UHGV virus genome: UHGV-1372088 | Strand: one strand, 5' to 3' | Length of the DNA stretch: 64,000 bases | From: a virus | Part shown: positions 36,386-42,544 of the stretch, piece after piece | Layout: every line of letters starts with the position of its first letter | Numbering within the stretch: the stretch's first letter is position 1 | Made by a program: the position numbers and the translations under genes | The notes under the pieces: generated by a model | Database searches by the model: none | Told to the model about the DNA's origin: nothing | Seen by the model: only the letters and a program-made list of their open reading frames with translations

Positions 36386-36877
36386 ATGAAACTGTCATAT
36401 ACGCCAGTTGTAGGCGAGCTATGCCAAATATCCGCGCAGTATCTTGGTGCCGGGTGGTTTGACTGCCAGGTGCTGGCGATGTCGGAGTTCGGTATTTGTG
36501 TGAATGTTACGAAGGAAGACGGGAAGAACTTCTTCTGGATTGACTCGACCGACGAGAGCGTGGCGGCCGACTTCCGTCGCAGCCTGTCTTTCCATCTCCA
36601 CTGGGCCAACAAAGAGACTAACGACCGTGTCGAGATGATATGTGTCGCCGACGACGCAACGACGCCTGAGAGCCGCACAAACAAGATTGTCGCATATATC
36701 GATCGTACTTCCGGCGTTGTGTCTTGCCTCCAGTCTAATGACTTCCTCGACAGATTCGAACGTGTGGAGGGTTTAGACGACTTCCCATCCGCTCCGCAGC
36801 CTCAAGACGGTTGCGACATTCTGGAATCTCAAGACGACCCGATCATCACATCAGCCACACTGGAGGCCACTGCCTAA
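36386..36877 (+). CDS. hypothetical protein
   Basis: 163-aa ORF; start context GAGAGAGTACACATG. Confidence 0.45.
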   Translation: MKLSYTPVVGELCQISAQYLGAGWFDCQVLAMSEFGICVNVTKEDGKNFFWIDSTDESVAADFRRSLSFHLHWANKETNDRVEMICVADDATTPESRTNKIVAYIDRTSGVVSCLQSNDFLDRFERVEGLDDFPSAPQPQDGCDILESQDDPIITSATLEATA

Positions 36878-38205
36878 TGGAAAAGCTGATCGCATTACGT
36901 GACAAACTGGACGCCATTAAAGCGATGGGGACCAATGCCAAAAAAGTCGCCCTGGCTGAGCTGAACGAGTTTGAGCAAAGCATGGTGTCAATGATGCTCA
37001 ACCCGTTCATCCGATTCGGGGTGAAGAAATACAGCGTCGCGGAGCCAGCGCTGGAGAATAAAATCCCTGATGAAGACGCTATCGATATTCTCAACTCCCT
37101 GGCCAGCCGTAAGCTCACTGGTAACAGCGCTATTGCGATGGTGGAGCAAGCTATTTCAGACATGACAGAGGAAGGGCAAGACGTGTTCCGCCGCTTCCTG
37201 ATTAAAGATCCGAAGGCCGGCATCGGCATTAGCCTGTGCAATAAAATCTTCGACAACCCGATTCCGGTGTTCGAGGTTCAGCTGGCCACGTCGTACAAAG
37301 AAAAAGGCGACAAGTATCCGTTTAAGGAAAACCCGAAAGCCAAATTCCCGATGATTGCCAGCCTCAAGCTGGACGGGATGCGCGTCATTGCCGAAGTCAT
37401 CGTTGACGAGGAAGAGGTTAACTTCCTGTCCCGCACCGGCAACCCGGTAACGTCTCTCGACCATCTGAAGCCAGCAGTATTAGATTTGGCGCGTATGACG
37501 CCGCATAAGCACATCTTCTTTGATGGTGAAGCGACGGCCGGTTCGTTCAACGATTCCATCTCAGCGCTGCGTAAAAAAGGCGTATCAGCTATTGGAGCGG
37601 TGTTCCACGTCTTCGATTACTTCTTGCCTGAATGGAAAGCCATTGCCAAAACGAAGGAGTACAAAAAGACCGGCCGCGTCCTGAAAGATCGCCATATCGA
37701 TTTGTGCAGCTGGACTAACTGGAAACGTCGACCGGACAACCAATACAAAGGCGACGTGCGACTACATCCCTTCCAGCTGGTGCATAGCCATAAAGAGTTT
37801 ATCGATCTGTTTATGGCGGCGCTGGACGCCAACGAAGAGGGGTACATGGCGAAAGACCCGTTCTCCGTTTATGAATTTAAGCGCACCAAAAGCTGGTGGA
37901 AGATGAAGGATGAGATTGAGGCCGATGGTGAAATTGTCGGGTTCAAGCCAGGTAAAGAGGATTCGGCATTCGCCCACACTCTCGGCTCGGTAACTATTCG
38001 CCTGGAGAACGGCGTGGAAGTTGAAGCATCCGGCATCAAGCATATGTACCTGGATGAGATCTGGAACAATCAGGAAAAGTATATGGGGCGTATCGTGAAG
38101 GTTAATGCCCACGAAGAGACGCCAGACGGCAGTTTACGCCATCCGCGCCTTAAATGGCCATCCTGTCTGCGCGACACCGAAGATCGTATTGGTGACAAAG
38201 AATGA
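36877..38205 (+). CDS. ATP-dependent DNA ligase
   Basis: Motif I KLDGMR (adenylation lysine), downstream EEGYMAKDP motif; about 440 aa; start ATG overlaps upstream stop (TAATG). Confidence 0.8.
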   Translation: MEKLIALRDKLDAIKAMGTNAKKVALAELNEFEQSMVSMMLNPFIRFGVKKYSVAEPALENKIPDEDAIDILNSLASRKLTGNSAIAMVEQAISDMTEEGQDVFRRFLIKDPKAGIGISLCNKIFDNPIPVFEVQLATSYKEKGDKYPFKENPKAKFPMIASLKLDGMRVIAEVIVDEEEVNFLSRTGNPVTSLDHLKPAVLDLARMTPHKHIFFDGEATAGSFNDSISALRKKGVSAIGAVFHVFDYFLPEWKAIAKTKEYKKTGRVLKDRHIDLCSWTNWKRRPDNQYKGDVRLHPFQLVHSHKEFIDLFMAALDANEEGYMAKDPFSVYEFKRTKSWWKMKDEIEADGEIVGFKPGKEDSAFAHTLGSVTIRLENGVEVEASGIKHMYLDEIWNNQEKYMGRIVKVNAHEETPDGSLRHPRLKWPSCLRDTEDRIGDKE

Positions 38206-38380: not shown

Positions 38381-38593
38381 GTGATTCAGCTAACGAAGCG
38401 GGAGCTGGCCACACTGTTCGAAATTGATAAGTGTGGTTACTTCCTGGAAAACTGGCGACCAAAGACAAGGGCGCGTTTAGAGCGCGTCCGTTTGGTTGAT
38501 ATGAAGGAGTCGAACGGAGAGATACGCTACAAGCTGTCCGACGTCGGCAGAGAACTGATTTTGGCTTTAATGGAATCAAAAGGGAGTGTTTGA
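38381..38593 (+). CDS. small hypothetical protein
   Basis: 70-aa ORF. Confidence 0.3.
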   Translation: MIQLTKRELATLFEIDKCGYFLENWRPKTRARLERVRLVDMKESNGEIRYKLSDVGRELILALMESKGSV

Positions 38594-38831
38594 AATGATG
38601 GATATTGTTTTGTATGCGGCGGTAGTCGTCAGCTTGTTTTACACGTCGGCCAGTCTCGTTGGGTGGCTGTTCAATCTGTTCTCTGCAAAGTGCCTGGCAG
38701 ATAAGAAAACCGTTCAGAATGGTGCATCCAAGCTTATTAGCCTGGTGATTCTGCGCTGGGGCGAGCTCAGGAAAGAGACCGCTTATGAGATCGTCACAGG
38801 CGGCTATGTCGTGACAATCAAAAAAAAATAG
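38586..38831 (+). CDS. small hypothetical membrane protein
   Basis: 81 aa with N-terminal hydrophobic helix. Confidence 0.3.
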   Translation: MFEMMDIVLYAAVVVSLFYTSASLVGWLFNLFSAKCLADKKTVQNGASKLISLVILRWGELRKETAYEIVTGGYVVTIKKK

Positions 38832-39263
38832 CGGTTTAGATATATAAGTGTTTACATACATGCTCGTAATGTATAAGATTGTTTTGTTTTCGGAGTGATG
38901 CGATTTTTGCGGAGTTTTAGAAACTGACCACAAAGATAAATGCAAACGATGATGTAGTTCTGATGGCGGCTTAATAGCCTATAAGTCAGTGAGGTCTTCC
39001 GATTCCTCATTAACAAATTCGGCGCACTGATCCGGTGTGATTAATAATGGATAGCGGAGACTTGCTGGTGAATAGGCGATACTGACCCACGTACCCTTAA
39101 CCACGCGATAGAGTCAGACGGCGAGTCTCTGCGAACATGGGTGATGGCCTTTTAGTTTGTCGATTAGCTGTGCATAGCGTCGGCGAGCGAAGTCTGGTGA
39201 CTTAAAGGTTTATTCCGATGCCTGATGTGTGAAATGCAAATAGCATATTTGAGGCTGAGGATT

Positions 39264-39291
39264 GCGGGTTCGATTCCCGCGTCACTCTCCC
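39264..39291 (+). other. isolated tRNA T-arm-like element (GCGGGTTCGATTCCCGC + acceptor-like tail), no matching 5' acceptor found
   Basis: Perfect GGTTCGATTCC T-loop consensus; followed by 15-bp inverted repeat CAGCTGTTTGGGTGG / CCGCCCAAACAGCTG at 39297-39375. Confidence 0.3.
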
Positions 39292-39703
39292 ACGTTTCAG
39301 CTGTTTGGGTGGTTAGGAGCATTTCCAATAACCATATCCCGGTTTCAGCCCGCAACTGACCGCCCAAACAGCTGCGTCGTGTGTGATTACTTAATGTCTC
39401 ATTTCATCTTGGGTTAATTTGAAATTGCGACGTAGCGCCTTTCTCAAAACATGAAGAGGGTTTTGAGAAAGTGCGTGCTTACGATCGGGCTTTCTTTTGC
39501 CATTGACAGTCTTCTTCAACGACTTGATATGTTGATCATAAGCCCAGCCGGGGGTGGCGTGATAACACCGGCTGATTGAGATGTTTGTCTAAGGAAGGAG
39601 ACTTTGGTATTGGTCTCCGATCTCACCTCCAGGCCATCGAATATGCCTCCGCTGTTTGGTGACAGGCTCAGTCCGTTCCCTCTTAACGATAAAAGAGGTG
39701 CAA

Positions 39704-39786
39704 GCAAACAAAGCAGTCTGGTTGACTGCGGCCGAGGAAGACGTCTTATCCGGCAGAGAGTGGTTAGATTCCGCTTGTTTGCGCCA
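39704..39786 (+). tRNA. tRNA-like gene (7-bp acceptor, D-arm, T-arm GGTTAGATTCC, encoded CCA; anticodon arm non-canonical)
   Basis: GCAAACA pairs TGTTTGC 7/7, D-stem GCAG/CTGC with GG in loop, T-stem AGTGG/CCGCT, discriminator G then CCA; anticodon region cannot be folded into a 5-bp/7-nt arm by hand. Confidence 0.35.
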
Positions 39787-39822
39787 ACCTAAAGGGCTTT
39801 TTCGAGAGTCCTTCAGATTGGA

Positions 39823-39899
39823 TACCCAATGCGACAAAACGGTAAGTCGAGAGGATGCTGAGTCCGATGATGCAGGTTCGAGTCCTGCTTGGGTGACTT
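39823..39899 (+). tRNA. tRNA-like element (acceptor, U8, D-arm, T-arm GGTTCGAGTCC; anticodon arm defective)
   Basis: TACCCAA/TTGGGTG acceptor pairing, D-stem CGAC/GTCG with GG in loop, T-stem GCAGG/CCTGC; no CCA; possible pseudo-tRNA. Confidence 0.3.
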
Positions 39900-40104
39900 A
39901 TCTAAGATGATGTGATTCCATACATCACTTAGTGTCGAGGTCTAAATGGTGCGGCCATCAACCGCGTAAACAGCCATTAGATCCGAGCCACAAGCCTCGT
40001 CTGGCACTAACGTAAAGTGCAAGTGACGTGAAATTCAGGCTGTACGGCCAGAAGAGTAGCGTCGCGAACCATAGATCAACTTCATAATTTAAAAGAGAAT
40101 ACAC

Positions 40105-40716
40105 ATGTCTGAAGTCAAGAAGGTCATTACCGTAGCTGAACGCTCCACCAAAACTCTGGTTAAAATCGTTGCTGATGGCCAGAAGGTGCTTGCTGAACTG
40201 GCCTCTATGGCTGATTCAAACGTTATTCTGGCCGAAGAGATTGAGTTTAAACAAGGTCAGCTGGCTGATATCGAAAACCAGATCGCCTCTACCGAGCGTG
40301 AAGCTAAAGCCCAGCTGCGTCTGCGTGTAATCGAAAACGAAGACAAAGTTCTGGCCGATCTGATGAAAGCGCGTGGCTATGCCGTCATCACCTTCTCTGA
40401 TCTGGATTCTCTGAACTCTGAACTGGTCGCGGCCAAAACCGATAACGAGTACGCAGTATCCGAAGCGCGTGAAGCTGGTTATCAGGCAGCAGCTGCTAAA
40501 TTTGGCGCAGAGAACCGTGAACTGGCATCCCAGCACAAAGTTGAACTGGCAGAGTTTAAGGCTCAGGCGGTTGCTAAAAACCAACGCATCTCTGACCTGG
40601 AAGCGCAGGTTTCCGAACTGCGTGGTCAGATCACCGCAGAGCGTGAAACTCGTCTGGAGATCGCTAAAGCTGATGCTGGTCGTGCAGGTGTGGTTGTGAA
40701 CGCCGGCAAGAACTAA
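40105..40716 (+). CDS. coiled-coil protein, Ala/Glu/Lys-rich
   Basis: 203-aa ORF with start context AAGAGAATACACATG, followed by two strong hairpins. Confidence 0.5.
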   Translation: MSEVKKVITVAERSTKTLVKIVADGQKVLAELASMADSNVILAEEIEFKQGQLADIENQIASTEREAKAQLRLRVIENEDKVLADLMKARGYAVITFSDLDSLNSELVAAKTDNEYAVSEAREAGYQAAAAKFGAENRELASQHKVELAEFKAQAVAKNQRISDLEAQVSELRGQITAERETRLEIAKADAGRAGVVVNAGKN

Positions 40717-40849
40717 TGTCGACTTGGCCTCTTCGGAGGCCATAGCCGAAAGACTGATTGCGATTGTTCTTTCGGCTGTGACTCGACCCATAGCAACTCC
40801 ATTGTATCGAGATAGACACGATAGAAACTTTTGTTCGCGCAAAAACCAA

Positions 40850-40873
40850 AGGAGCCGAAAGGCTCCTTTTTTG
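40850..40873 (+). terminator. rho-independent terminator
   Basis: AGGAGCCGAAAGGCTCCT hairpin + T6. Confidence 0.65.
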
Positions 40874-40887
40874 TATCAGGAGAAAGG

Positions 40888-41709
40888 ATGACCAGCAAAA
40901 CTATCAACCCACCGCTGAAGTGGCCAGGCGGGAAGCGAACCGTGATGGGGTTCATCAACCAACACTTCCCAGAGGGCCGGCGACTCATCGAGCCATTCGT
41001 CGGTGGCGGTTCCGTTTTCCTGAATGCCGGGTTTGACCGCAATCTACTGAATGACGTCAACCCGGATCTGATTAACTTTTACCGCCAGCTGGTGGCCGGT
41101 GGCGCCGGTTTCGTTGAAATGGCGAGAGAGCTGTTTTCCAAAAACAGTGAAGGCGAGTATTACGACATCCGTGAGAAATTTAGAGCGCGAGATTCTGCGC
41201 CGGATATTCAAGCAGCCTACTTCCTGTATCTCAACCGGCACTGTTTCAACGGGCTGGTCCGCTACAACCAGGCTGGTGCGTTTAATGTCGGGTATGGGAA
41301 ATACAAAGCGCCCCATTTCCCAGAGGCAGAGATGCTTGCGTTGATCCAGATGGCTGGCTTGCGAGAACTGGCGTTTGTTTGTGGCGACTTCGACAGTGTC
41401 ATAGAGGAAGCGGGGGATGGTGACGTTGTATTCTGCGATCCGCCATACGAACCCATGCCAGATAAAAATGGCTTCACAGCGTACTCAGGGGCGACCTTCA
41501 GCTTCGCGGACCAAGAGCGTCTGACTCGTCTGCTGATCGCGGCCACGGAGCGTGGGGCGCGTGTGATGATAACCAATAGCGGAGCGCCAAAGATTCTGGA
41601 GCTGTACCACAACAACGGATTCACGCAGCGCCGGTTATCCGCTCGTCGCTCCATCTCATGCTCAGATTCCGGGCGTGAGACGGTAAGTGACGTGTTGGCC
41701 ATTATTTGA
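40888..41709 (+). CDS. dam: DNA adenine methyltransferase (Dam/D12-class N6-MTase)
   Basis: N-terminal KWPGGK...EPFVGGGSVF (AdoMet-binding motif I) and catalytic DPPY motif; ATG 40888 with RBS AGGAGAAAGG. Confidence 0.8.
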   Translation: MTSKTINPPLKWPGGKRTVMGFINQHFPEGRRLIEPFVGGGSVFLNAGFDRNLLNDVNPDLINFYRQLVAGGAGFVEMARELFSKNSEGEYYDIREKFRARDSAPDIQAAYFLYLNRHCFNGLVRYNQAGAFNVGYGKYKAPHFPEAEMLALIQMAGLRELAFVCGDFDSVIEEAGDGDVVFCDPPYEPMPDKNGFTAYSGATFSFADQERLTRLLIAATERGARVMITNSGAPKILELYHNNGFTQRRLSARRSISCSDSGRETVSDVLAII

Positions 41710-41788: not shown

Positions 41789-42544
41789 ATGGGTTTACCA
41801 CGTAAGAAGGCTCGCAAAGCAGGGAAAGGGGATCACGCATTACGCGGTCGTCGCGCTGATTACATCATTGTCGATGATCTGGCAGACGTCCAGACCCCGC
41901 GCTCCAAGCGGGACAATACACCCATTGAAGCACGTAATGAGGCTCAGGGTCATTACCTGGCCAACATTCAAGCCAAGTCGCTAATCATCGCCACCGGCGA
42001 AGCCGGCTGCGGCAAAACGTTCCTGGCCACCGCGTATGCTGCGGACCGTCTGCTTGCGAAAGACGTCCAGCGCATTATTGTTACCCGCCCCGTACTGCAA
42101 GCTGAAGAAGATTTGGGCTTTCTTCCGGGTGATGTGGGTGAGAAGTTTGCCCCCTACTTCCGACCCGTCTATGACGTTCTCCAGAAGCGTCTGGGCGCGT
42201 CCTTCCTCGAATACTGTCTCAAGCCAGAAGTCGCCAAAGTAGAGATCGCCCCGTTCGCTTATATGCGTGGCCGGACGTTTGAGGACGCTGTGGTCATTCT
42301 GGATGAAGCGCAAAACGTTACACCGTCACAGATGAAAATGTTCCTGACCCGCATGGGCGAGAATGTCACCGTCATTGTGAACGGCGATGTGACACAGTGC
42401 GACCTTCCGTTGGAGATTGAGTCCGGTCTGGACGATGCTCTTCGCCGCTTCAAACCCAGCCGTGATGTGGGGATGGTCGAGTTCTCGTTAGAAGATTGCG
42501 TCCGCTCTGACCTCTGTAAAGTTGCACTAGATGCCTACCAGTAA
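41789..42544 (+). CDS. phoH: PhoH-like ATPase
   Basis: P-loop GEAGCGKTFLATAYA; PhoH-family length and downstream motifs. Confidence 0.75.
   Translation: MGLPRKKARKAGKGDHALRGRRADYIIVDDLADVQTPRSKRDNTPIEARNEAQGHYLANIQAKSLIIATGEAGCGKTFLATAYAADRLLAKDVQRIIVTRPVLQAEEDLGFLPGDVGEKFAPYFRPVYDVLQKRLGASFLEYCLKPEVAKVEIAPFAYMRGRTFEDAVVILDEAQNVTPSQMKMFLTRMGENVTVIVNGDVTQCDLPLEIESGLDDALRRFKPSRDVGMVEFSLEDCVRSDLCKVALDAYQ

Follow-up and report, generated by a model that had tools for sequence, protein, structure and literature searches.

The non-coding island at positions 38830–40100 of virus genome UHGV-1372088, of which we analysed a stretch of 64,000 nucleotides (nt; hereafter the window), opens with a structured RNA core derived from bacterial transfer-messenger RNA (tmRNA, the product of ssrA). 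Our tentative reading, a little short of even confidence, is that an SSU5-like Klebsiella phage-plasmid has here an operon for non-coding RNAs, the first product of which, here called the tag RNA, would extend from about position 38886 to about position 39138. The comparisons below establish homology to tmRNA in both orientations, conservation of a tag-coding frame, RNA structure, a wide distribution among phages and co-orientation with tRNA genes. That the tag RNA would pair with the tmRNA of the host, blocking or replacing its tag template, and that the phage template would be used for tagging, is in our estimate nearly as probable as its contrary.

A tmRNA-derived core and its antisense segment

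The tag RNA and its promoter comprise the following features:

38851–38879, plus strand: sigma-70-like promoter (TTTACA, 17 nt, TAAGAT), the only promoter-like site in 38500–40300
38886–39053, plus strand: structured RNA core derived from tmRNA, about 170 nt
38886–38919, plus strand: 5′ segment, a reverse-complement copy of host tmRNA nt 68–104 (blastn plus/minus match to Escherichia coli ssrA)
38920–38941, plus strand: leader (GAAACTGACCACAAAGATAAAT) preceding the resume codon, positions −5 and −4 being U and A; aligns in sense with ssrA 80–89
38942–38974, plus strand: tag frame GCA AAC GAT GAT GTA GTT CTG ATG GCG GCT TAA (ANDDVVLMAA*), from the tmRNA model match and coding-type conservation
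38960–38989, plus strand: helix-5-like stem enclosing the stop codon (CTGA 38960–38963 with TCAG 38986–38989); double changes in 4/4 pairs, 100% of cells paired
38990–39022, plus strand: H-type pseudoknot (TGAGG 38990–38994 with CCTCA 39005–39009; loop CCGA 38999–39002 with TCGG 39019–39022)
39030–39052, plus strand: hairpin ATCC/GGAT with a highly conserved 15-nt loop, GGTGTGATTAATAAT; double changes in 4/4 tested pairs
39053–39133, plus strand: lineage-specific spacer closed by GCGGAGAC (39053–39060) and GTCTCTGC (39126–39133) in the minimum-energy fold of 38884–39296

Blastn aligned the core in sense with nt 80–128 of E. coli ssrA, and in a permissive Rfam scan positions 38877–38974 matched the tag-coding part of the permuted tmRNA model (tmRNA_permuted; 29.7 bits, E = 8e-4, below the threshold of 47), which is the best Rfam match of the core in the window. 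The promoter, with −35 and −10 hexamers that are kept in relatives, would start the RNA just upstream of the motif GTTTTCG; equivalent promoters lie directly upstream of the core in phage C1 (TTGACA, 17 nt, TAGATT), Erwinia phage Panisse and Aeromonas phage pIS4-A. The lineages read have U(−5) and A(−4) in their leaders, locus L048 with its variant leader AAUAAUC among them; the two residues correspond to U85 and A86 of E. coli tmRNA, which set the frame there.

The tag of the window is ANDDVVLMAA, that of the host ANDENYALAA. The frame spans ten codons in 110 out of 110 distinct homologues, which encode 19 peptides, all of the form AN[DE]......[AV]A, and it closes with TAA (31 cases), TAG (2) or TGA (2). 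Variability is highest at third codon positions (1.94, 1.54 and 3.17 for the first, second and third), codon 10 appears as all four alanine codons (GCT, GCG, GCA and GCC), and the resume codon is GCA, or GCT in one relative. In P1 the frame has suffered a 6-nt deletion and a 6-nt insertion that leave its length unchanged, and ARAGORN at 85% thresholds found the same resume site and tag in the P1-like and Taipeivirus copies. Judged by this pattern of variation, the tag frame behaves as coding. It is preceded by neither a start codon nor a ribosome-binding site; an alternative frame starting at ATG (MQTMM*) was rejected, being lost in L048 and unconserved.

Covariation was tested for four helices in 66 diverse cores (alignment A2). 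Taken together, these helices were paired in 95.7% of the cells, and 13 of the 17 pairs changed on both sides; there were 142 compensatory cells vs 43 ± 9 in shuffles, and controls in which the helices were slid paired at only 29–52%. The hairpin of the pseudoknot showed double changes in three of its five pairs (99.7% of cells paired), and its loop-to-3′ stem changed from GC to AU in 17 sequences and from AU to GC in nine (99.6% paired). Likewise, the loop GGTGTGATTAATAAT is near-constant while the stem carrying it differs fully by lineage (GCCC/GGGC, TCCCTGA/TCAGGGA or GGCGGGAG/CTCCCGCC). The succession of template, helix around the stop codon and pseudoknot is the layout of tmRNA downstream of the resume codon. 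The spacer at 39053–39133 is 99% identical among Klebsiella plasmids and was not found in other phage groups.

The 5′ segment is homologous to tmRNA in the opposite orientation. Its counterpart, ssrA 68–104, comprises the end of pseudoknot PK1, the leader, the resume codon and the first five tag codons. In local alignments from ten lineages, antisense scores were 14–21.5 vs 6–8.5 in sense, with shuffles reaching at most 17 (p ≤ 0.002–0.008), and the antisense alignment always ended at ssrA nt 104. The segment was therefore rejected as a sense homologue of the 5′ end of tmRNA, for which the scores are at shuffle level. RNAduplex predicted −25 to −37 kcal/mol for 21 variants, always at ssrA 67–104, vs −13 to −22 kcal/mol for pairing with their own tag region, and in cofolding the heterodimer was 10–15 kcal/mol more stable than the separate RNAs. 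The complementarity is extended, lies above chance and is conserved across lineages, as befits a trans-acting antisense RNA.

The segment fits the host where the two templates differ, namely in the GUC before the resume codon and in the codons GAC GAA AAC: its motifs GUUUUCG(UC) and GCGAC match host GACGAAAAC and GUCGC, where the phage's own template has GAUGAUGUU and AAUGC. In the N4-like variant GCGAUUAUGCGG, pairing in cis to its own leader is lost and 8 bp with the host are gained. No consistent partner for GUUUUCG within the same RNA was found in two loci scanned, nor on reading the other lineages. Complementarity thus indicates that the antisense segment is aimed at host codons rather than at those of the phage. 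The host site is near-invariant across Enterobacteriaceae and conserved in Enterobacterales, in keeping with the conserved GUUUUCG of the phage RNAs.

The core was found in 762 phage records from unrelated families and in 443 plasmid records, mostly P1-like phage-plasmids of E. coli; it is also present, usually without annotation, in 151 of 5,426 complete E. coli genomes. Its settings are diverse. It lies between the Q antiterminator and holin genes in lambdoid prophages, has its own promoter and terminator in phage C1, stands upstream of a tRNA cluster in Ackermannviridae and within one in Felix O1 and Erwinia Ea214-like phages, and is also carried by pIS4-A. In P1 it occupies the leader of the C1-repressed ban operon, between the "dicF-like region" and tRNA-Asn, and in N4-like phages it is followed by about 100 nt and an intrinsic terminator. 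tRNA genes on the same strand occur within 1.5 kb of the core in 57 of 141 loci; none was found on the opposite strand.

Docking on host tmRNA and its alternatives

Because the frame is conserved as coding and lacks initiation signals, the RNA has no tRNA-like domain of its own and its antisense segment is directed to the host, docking on host tmRNA appears to be the simplest arrangement. The 5′ segment would anneal to nt 68–104 of host tmRNA, masking the host resume codon and first codons, and the tag RNA would thereby be tethered to the alanine-charged tRNA-like domain and the SmpB of the host. Docking may further allow translation to resume on the template of the phage; rescued ribosomes would in that case add ANDDVVLMAA instead of ANDENYALAA, and the fate of the tagged proteins would be altered during infection. 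That Enterobacterales phages reprogram ribosome rescue in this manner, with the tag RNA docking on charged host tmRNA and both masking and replacing its template, we regard as somewhat unlikely; stalled nascent chains would then receive viral tags (ANDDVVLMAA, ANDNVFLAVA and others), not the host degradation tag.

Several points weigh against docking. We know of no precedent for a template supplied in trans through a duplex, and the duplex would be expected to disrupt part of PK1 in host tmRNA. The 5′ segment also forms a weaker hairpin with its own leader, leaving room for a role in cis, and, at 74% identity, it is more variable than any other part when five close Klebsiella plasmids are compared. 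The hosts of the sampled phages share nearly one tmRNA target, which precludes a test of phage–host covariation, and no phage was recovered from hosts with a divergent tag region (e.g., Yersinia, ANDSQYESAALAA). Lastly, positions 38896–38902 can pair with 39281–39287, beside a T-arm, which draws the outline of a one-piece tmRNA. As to the identity of the 5′ module, the promoter and antisense segment (38886–38941) are 65–74% identical among the five plasmids and the next 500 nt (38942–39435) are 98–100% identical, a gap that points to recombination of the 5′ module or, alternatively, to rapid evolution of the host-directed segment.

The pairing just mentioned, GAGUGAU with GUCACUC next to a canonical T-arm, would suit an autonomous phage tmRNA that has its tRNA-like domain in cis or on a second piece, is charged and uses host SmpB, the antisense segment being a relic; ARAGORN at 85% thresholds even calls a tmRNA at 38893–39290. 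As a general solution, though, the one-piece tmRNA (5′ GGAGTGAT, 3′ GTCACTCT) was rejected, because its 5′ strand is not conserved: in four close relatives the bases at 38896–38902 differ and the 3′ site is identical, and the T-arm element owns a covarying 5′ strand at 39139–39145. Moreover, the hypothetical stem in the window would carry G3:C70 and U73, not the alanine identity (G3:U70, A73). C1-type and N4-like units contain no T-loop, and in N4-like phage S5 the smallest unit consists of the core, a further 100 nt or so and an intrinsic terminator. At default settings ARAGORN found no tmRNA in the window or in six homologous loci, and the Rfam tmRNA model (RF00023), which like ARAGORN gave no tmRNA in any lineage, matched only the 17-nt T-arm in the window (17 bits vs 47). 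The permuted-tmRNA calls that ARAGORN made at lowered thresholds have the right tags, but the tRNA-like domains proposed with them pair unconvincingly and were discarded. In Felix O1, a separate tRNA-like element without D-arm (G3:U70, A73, CCA) lies just downstream of the core, and genome announcements list, without analysis, ARAGORN tmRNAs for Felix O1 and Moogle (PMC4319497, PMC4392139); this element also occurs alone in other phages and is not present in the window. No tRNA-like domain is conserved across lineages, and the core is treated here as having none of its own. An autonomous tmRNA appears quite improbable.

Another alternative is a purely inhibitory RNA, in which the 5′ segment blocks the host tmRNA or triggers its cleavage, phage proteins stay untagged and the tag-like part is an untranslated decoy or scaffold, e.g., for SmpB, S1 or a protease adaptor. 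The antisense homology, the predicted duplex and the lack of a tRNA-like domain in cis agree with it, as does the suggestion that, in mycobacteriophage DS6A, a sequence with little beyond the tRNA-like domain is a tmRNA inhibitor (PMC4131195). Conversely, a decoy would not be expected to keep ten codons, to swap three stop codons, to use four alanine codons or to retain its length through paired 6-nt indels (insertions and deletions), and we judge this explanation unlikely, if less so than an autonomous tmRNA. Finally, the island could be a functionless remnant, either a decaying tRNA cluster or an attachment site in ssrA or a tRNA gene, as the single marginal tRNA call and the match of the T-arm at 39264–39280 to the ssrA T-arm at 15 of 17 positions would allow. 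Decay is difficult to reconcile with 98–100% identity over 38942–39435 among plasmids with flanks only 65–90% identical, with covarying structure, and with a core found in so many unrelated phage families. An attachment-site remnant was rejected because the copied part of ssrA is its internal messenger region, not its 3′ end, and because the sequence 3′ of the T-arm differs from ssrA; we give a functionless island hardly any credence.

The D-arm-less element of Felix O1 (L051 1694–1775) has a counterpart in Klebsiella phage Roth49 (L148 2508–2589), annotated as tRNA-OTHER, and displays a UCU anticodon-like loop. It is 83–90% identical across Felix O1-like and SSU5-like phages, myoviruses of about 150 kb and one 378-kb phage, and may be either a mimic of the tmRNA domain or a recoding tRNA.

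The remainder of the island and its genomic context

The region is 99.6–100% identical to non-mobilizable plasmids of 104–110 kb from Klebsiella pneumoniae (CP110757.1, LR890700.1) and phage SSU5 is only a distant relative of the window; together, these similarities indicate that the source of the window is an SSU5-like Klebsiella phage-plasmid. The island is flanked by small genes ending at 38831 and by a conserved phage gene of unknown function starting at 40105 (phrog_9325). Contrary to a preliminary description of this sequence, by which no open reading frame (ORF) in the island exceeds 80 amino acids, there are two slightly longer ones, both TTG-started, of 82 (39589–39837, minus strand) and 84 amino acids (39656–39910, plus strand). 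They overlap the tRNA-like elements and, since neither has a Pfam or PHROG match, a protein-coding reading was rejected. Within 39476–39640, close relatives differ by indels of 1, 2 and 4 nt, which, not being multiples of three, argue against coding there. Positions 38830–40100 are thus without any supported gene.

Three tRNA-like elements had been recognized in the island, and this observation is real: the 64-kb window has three copies of the T-loop motif GGTTMGANTCC, each of them within the island (39267, 39762 and 39875), against an expectation of 0.17, and none of 100 shuffles reached three. The part of the island downstream of the tag RNA contains:

39139–39292, plus strand: tRNA-like element 1, 154 nt, with acceptor strands GGGTGAT (39139–39145) and GTCACTC (39281–39287), T-arm at 39264–39280 and tail TCCCA
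39298–39375, plus strand: 19-bp hairpin with a 39-nt loop and no U-tract; −41.2 kcal/mol, z = −4.8, conserved in relatives
39439–39471, plus strand: perfect 12-bp hairpin (CTTTCTCAAAAC/GTTTTGAGAAAG), z = −4.8
39476–39640, plus strand: fast-evolving spacer including a weak 7-bp hairpin, 89% identity in the alignment of relatives
39704–39786, plus strand: tRNA-like element 2, with 7-bp acceptor stem, 6-bp D-like hairpin, T-arm, G73 and encoded CCA (from its fold)
39823–39897, plus strand: tRNA-Gln(CUG)-derived element, called by ARAGORN and by the Rfam tRNA model (RF00005; 31 bits vs a threshold of 29)
39898–40060, plus strand: conserved structured tail before the next gene (40105), 98% identical among relatives, z = −2.9

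In element 1, the T-arm GCGGGTTCGATTCCCGC stands exactly where it had been placed (39264–39280), and a 118-nt insert containing the conserved GTGAAATGCAAATAGC replaces the D-arm and the anticodon arm. Five Klebsiella plasmids share the element at 100% identity, and homologues occur in 54 Kuttervirus records, the homology starting and ending exactly at the acceptor strands. In Kuttervirus PhiSH19 the stems are GAGUGUG/CGCACUC and UCGGG/CCCGA, so that acceptor positions 6–7 and the first T-stem pair (G:C to U:A) change on both sides; only the acceptor stem and the T-arm covary. The conserved GTGAAATGCAAATAGC (39229–39244, and L229 399–416) resembles the resume context of the tag RNA (ATAAATGCAAACGAT), and the frame that starts at its GCA runs through the T-arm and is unconserved as protein. 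In addition, ACTGACC occurs three times in similar contexts, at 38922, 39080 and 39354 (GAAACTGACCAC, GATACTGACCCAC and GCAACTGACCGCC); for comparison, E. coli tmRNA has AGACTGACT near nt 292.

The acceptor stem, D-arm, T-arm and encoded CCA previously assigned to element 2 all fold, the D-arm as a 6-bp D-like hairpin and the 3′ end as G-CCA, and a long hairpin with a 4-nt loop occupies the place of the anticodon arm. Its T-loop is GGTTAGATTCC in the window and the canonical GGTTCGATTCC in four aligned Klebsiella relatives, in two of which (L046 and L048, with canonical T-loop) ARAGORN calls a tRNA-Phe. The long-hairpin fold was preferred over tRNA-Phe because of a compensatory change, G28:C51 to A:U, in L047 and L049 (alignment A1, columns 1042/1065).

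The 74-nt element, first delimited at 39823–39896, is the only tRNA gene called in the whole window, by ARAGORN as well as by Rfam. Its features include U1, a Gln-like D-arm and the anticodon CUG; acceptor, D-arm and T-arm are good. Two of the five pairs in its anticodon stem are non-standard, G replaces U at position 33 and the minimum-energy fold has a 4-bp anticodon stem with a 5-nt loop. The acceptor stays paired in relatives, with U1.G72 changing to U1:A72 and A2:U71 to G2.U71.

The scans with ARAGORN and Rfam proposed in the preliminary description hence yielded one marginal tRNA, at 39823–39897, and left the other two elements of the window uncalled. That description had found the anticodon arms of both longer elements non-canonical by hand; the analysis showed two mismatched pairs in the last element and supported the 4-nt-loop hairpin in element 2. 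Of the fates it considered, tRNA-derived structured RNAs proved right for two of the three elements, and recombination or attachment remnants found no support. Its interpretation was partly right, and it overlooked the dominant feature, the tmRNA-derived tag RNA at the 5′ end. Of the three, the last is tRNA-derived and doubtful as a decoder, and the first two mimic acceptor and T-arm and are unable to decode. These elements most likely define RNA ends, as putative signals for RNase P and 3′ processing, by analogy with other phages in which true tRNA genes or an intrinsic terminator take their position. As predicted substrates of RNase P and of the 3′ processing enzymes, they would direct the cutting of a long transcript and set the 3′ end of the tag RNA.

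Among the other hairpins, the one at 39298–39375 had been described as a 15-bp inverted repeat; the repeat exists, with one G.U pair and its arms at 39298–39312 and 39361–39375, one base off the earlier coordinates, and none of 200 shuffles was as stable. The hairpin at 39439–39471, absent from the earlier list, changes A:U to G.U in relatives with the stem preserved. The 7-bp hairpin CAGCCGG/CCGGCTG also exists, 1–2 bases away from its first placement (39545–39551 and 39568–39574); its fold is no better than chance (z = −1.2), it lies in the only fast-evolving stretch of the island and its 3′ arm is broken in relatives. A 50-nt stretch of the structured tail (39984–40033) is shared with phage SSU5.

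Neighbouring ORFs at 36811–38205, 40831–41709 and 41789–42544 resemble a DNA ligase, a Dam-type adenine methyltransferase and PhoH, as deduced from their translations and from the annotation of related records; the P1 copy of the core likewise lies directly after a Dam-family methyltransferase gene (dmt). On a plasmid of K. quasipneumoniae, an HNH endonuclease gene stops 6 nt short of the tag RNA (L048 187–693), and the tRNA-OTHER element of Roth49 likewise has an HNH gene beside it, which hints at a spread of RNA modules assisted by homing endonucleases.

Downstream of the core, lambdoid, P1-like and C1-type phages carry at least one repeated long hairpin, CACAAC(A)GGTAAGAGCAtt ... agTGCTCTTWYCGTTGTG (L001 3890–4420, L045 3110–3720 and L002 3160–3300, all outside the window). 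The stems covary (e.g., GGGTA/TACCC in P1) and the loops hold interchangeable "cargo" of 40–250 nt, some with T-arm-like hairpins; the whole resembles an array of cassettes for small structured RNAs. One type of cargo (CCTGACGAGTCCATGAGGGACGAAACGC; L008, L017, L025, L028, L035 and L038) resembles the core of a hammerhead ribozyme; a hammerhead-like motif in the inserts of some lineages (CCTGACGAG...CGAAAC) was not retained, since it has no Rfam hammerhead match (L008). A GGTGAATGCGC... module after the hairpin units is matched by STnc100, a family in Rfam for a candidate small RNA of Salmonella (48.7 bits in L034 2223–2436, minus strand; 30.4 bits in the P1-like L045 3690–3810), and therefore part of these arrays is already catalogued as small RNA.

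Novelty, significance and relation to known systems

The core is apparently a widespread and undescribed tmRNA-derived phage RNA. No family in Rfam 15 covers it, and in database records its site is unannotated or a "hypothetical protein", the P1 record annotating only the neighbouring dicF-like region. A literature search of incomplete coverage, which leaves room for an earlier description, found the element undescribed beyond the Felix O1-like announcements. If the proposed reprogramming of ribosome rescue proved true, it would mark the first takeover of trans-translation by a virus and the first case of a template given in trans to tmRNA. Bacteria rescue ribosomes mainly through tmRNA-SmpB, which is also a drug target, and a messenger half joined to an antisense copy of the host sequence would imply that phages routinely interfere with, or redirect, protein tagging in infection. 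The core is unannotated in the model phages P1, P7 and Felix O1, resides in phage-plasmids and prophages of Klebsiella and E. coli, and occurs in phage groups of therapeutic use (Ackermannviridae, Felix O1-like and N4-like). The idea would also explain part of the long non-coding stretches beside phage tRNA clusters, and such islands should not be taken for tRNA pseudogenes in annotation.

With the C4 antisense RNA precursor of P1 and P7, which is processed by RNase P at a tRNA-like signal, the island shares mimics of acceptor and T-arm in a phage non-coding transcript beside small RNAs; the three elements of the window are unrelated to C4 in sequence, and their cleavage is only predicted. AgvB and AsxR, prophage anti-sRNAs (antagonists of small regulatory RNAs) of enterohaemorrhagic E. 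coli, pair with an abundant regulatory RNA of the host and neutralise it; unlike them, the tag RNA carries a conserved reading frame and its proposed target is tmRNA. In the two-piece tmRNAs of alpha-proteobacteria and cyanobacteria (RF01849, RF04321), template and 3′ acceptor part likewise sit on separate, base-paired chains; both pieces come from one gene there and the coding piece has the 5′ acceptor strand, whereas the proposed partner of the tag RNA is a complete host tmRNA, paired at its messenger region.

The closest comparison is with bacterial tmRNA itself (SsrA, RF00023, acting with SmpB). Both have a leader rich in A that carries U(−5) and A(−4), GCA as resume codon, a ten-residue tag that starts with AND and ends in small hydrophobic residues plus alanine, and a stop codon inside a helix that is directly followed by a pseudoknot. 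In contrast to bacterial tmRNA, the tag RNA has no conserved acceptor/T-arm domain, no G3:U70 and no PK1, PK3 or PK4, bears an extra antisense copy of the messenger region at its 5′ end, is phage-borne and falls below the normal thresholds of ARAGORN and Rfam. Phage-carried sequences derived from tmRNA have precedents: a census of 543 RefSeq bacterial viruses found ssrA only in eight mycobacteriophages, such as Bxz1, and added from outside its dataset Bacillus phage G and DS6A, the latter with the tRNA-like domain only (Hudson, Lau and Williams, 2014; PMC4131195). As DS6A illustrates, one half of tmRNA may occur alone in a phage; in its case the tRNA-like domain is kept, whereas the tag RNA keeps the opposite, messenger half.

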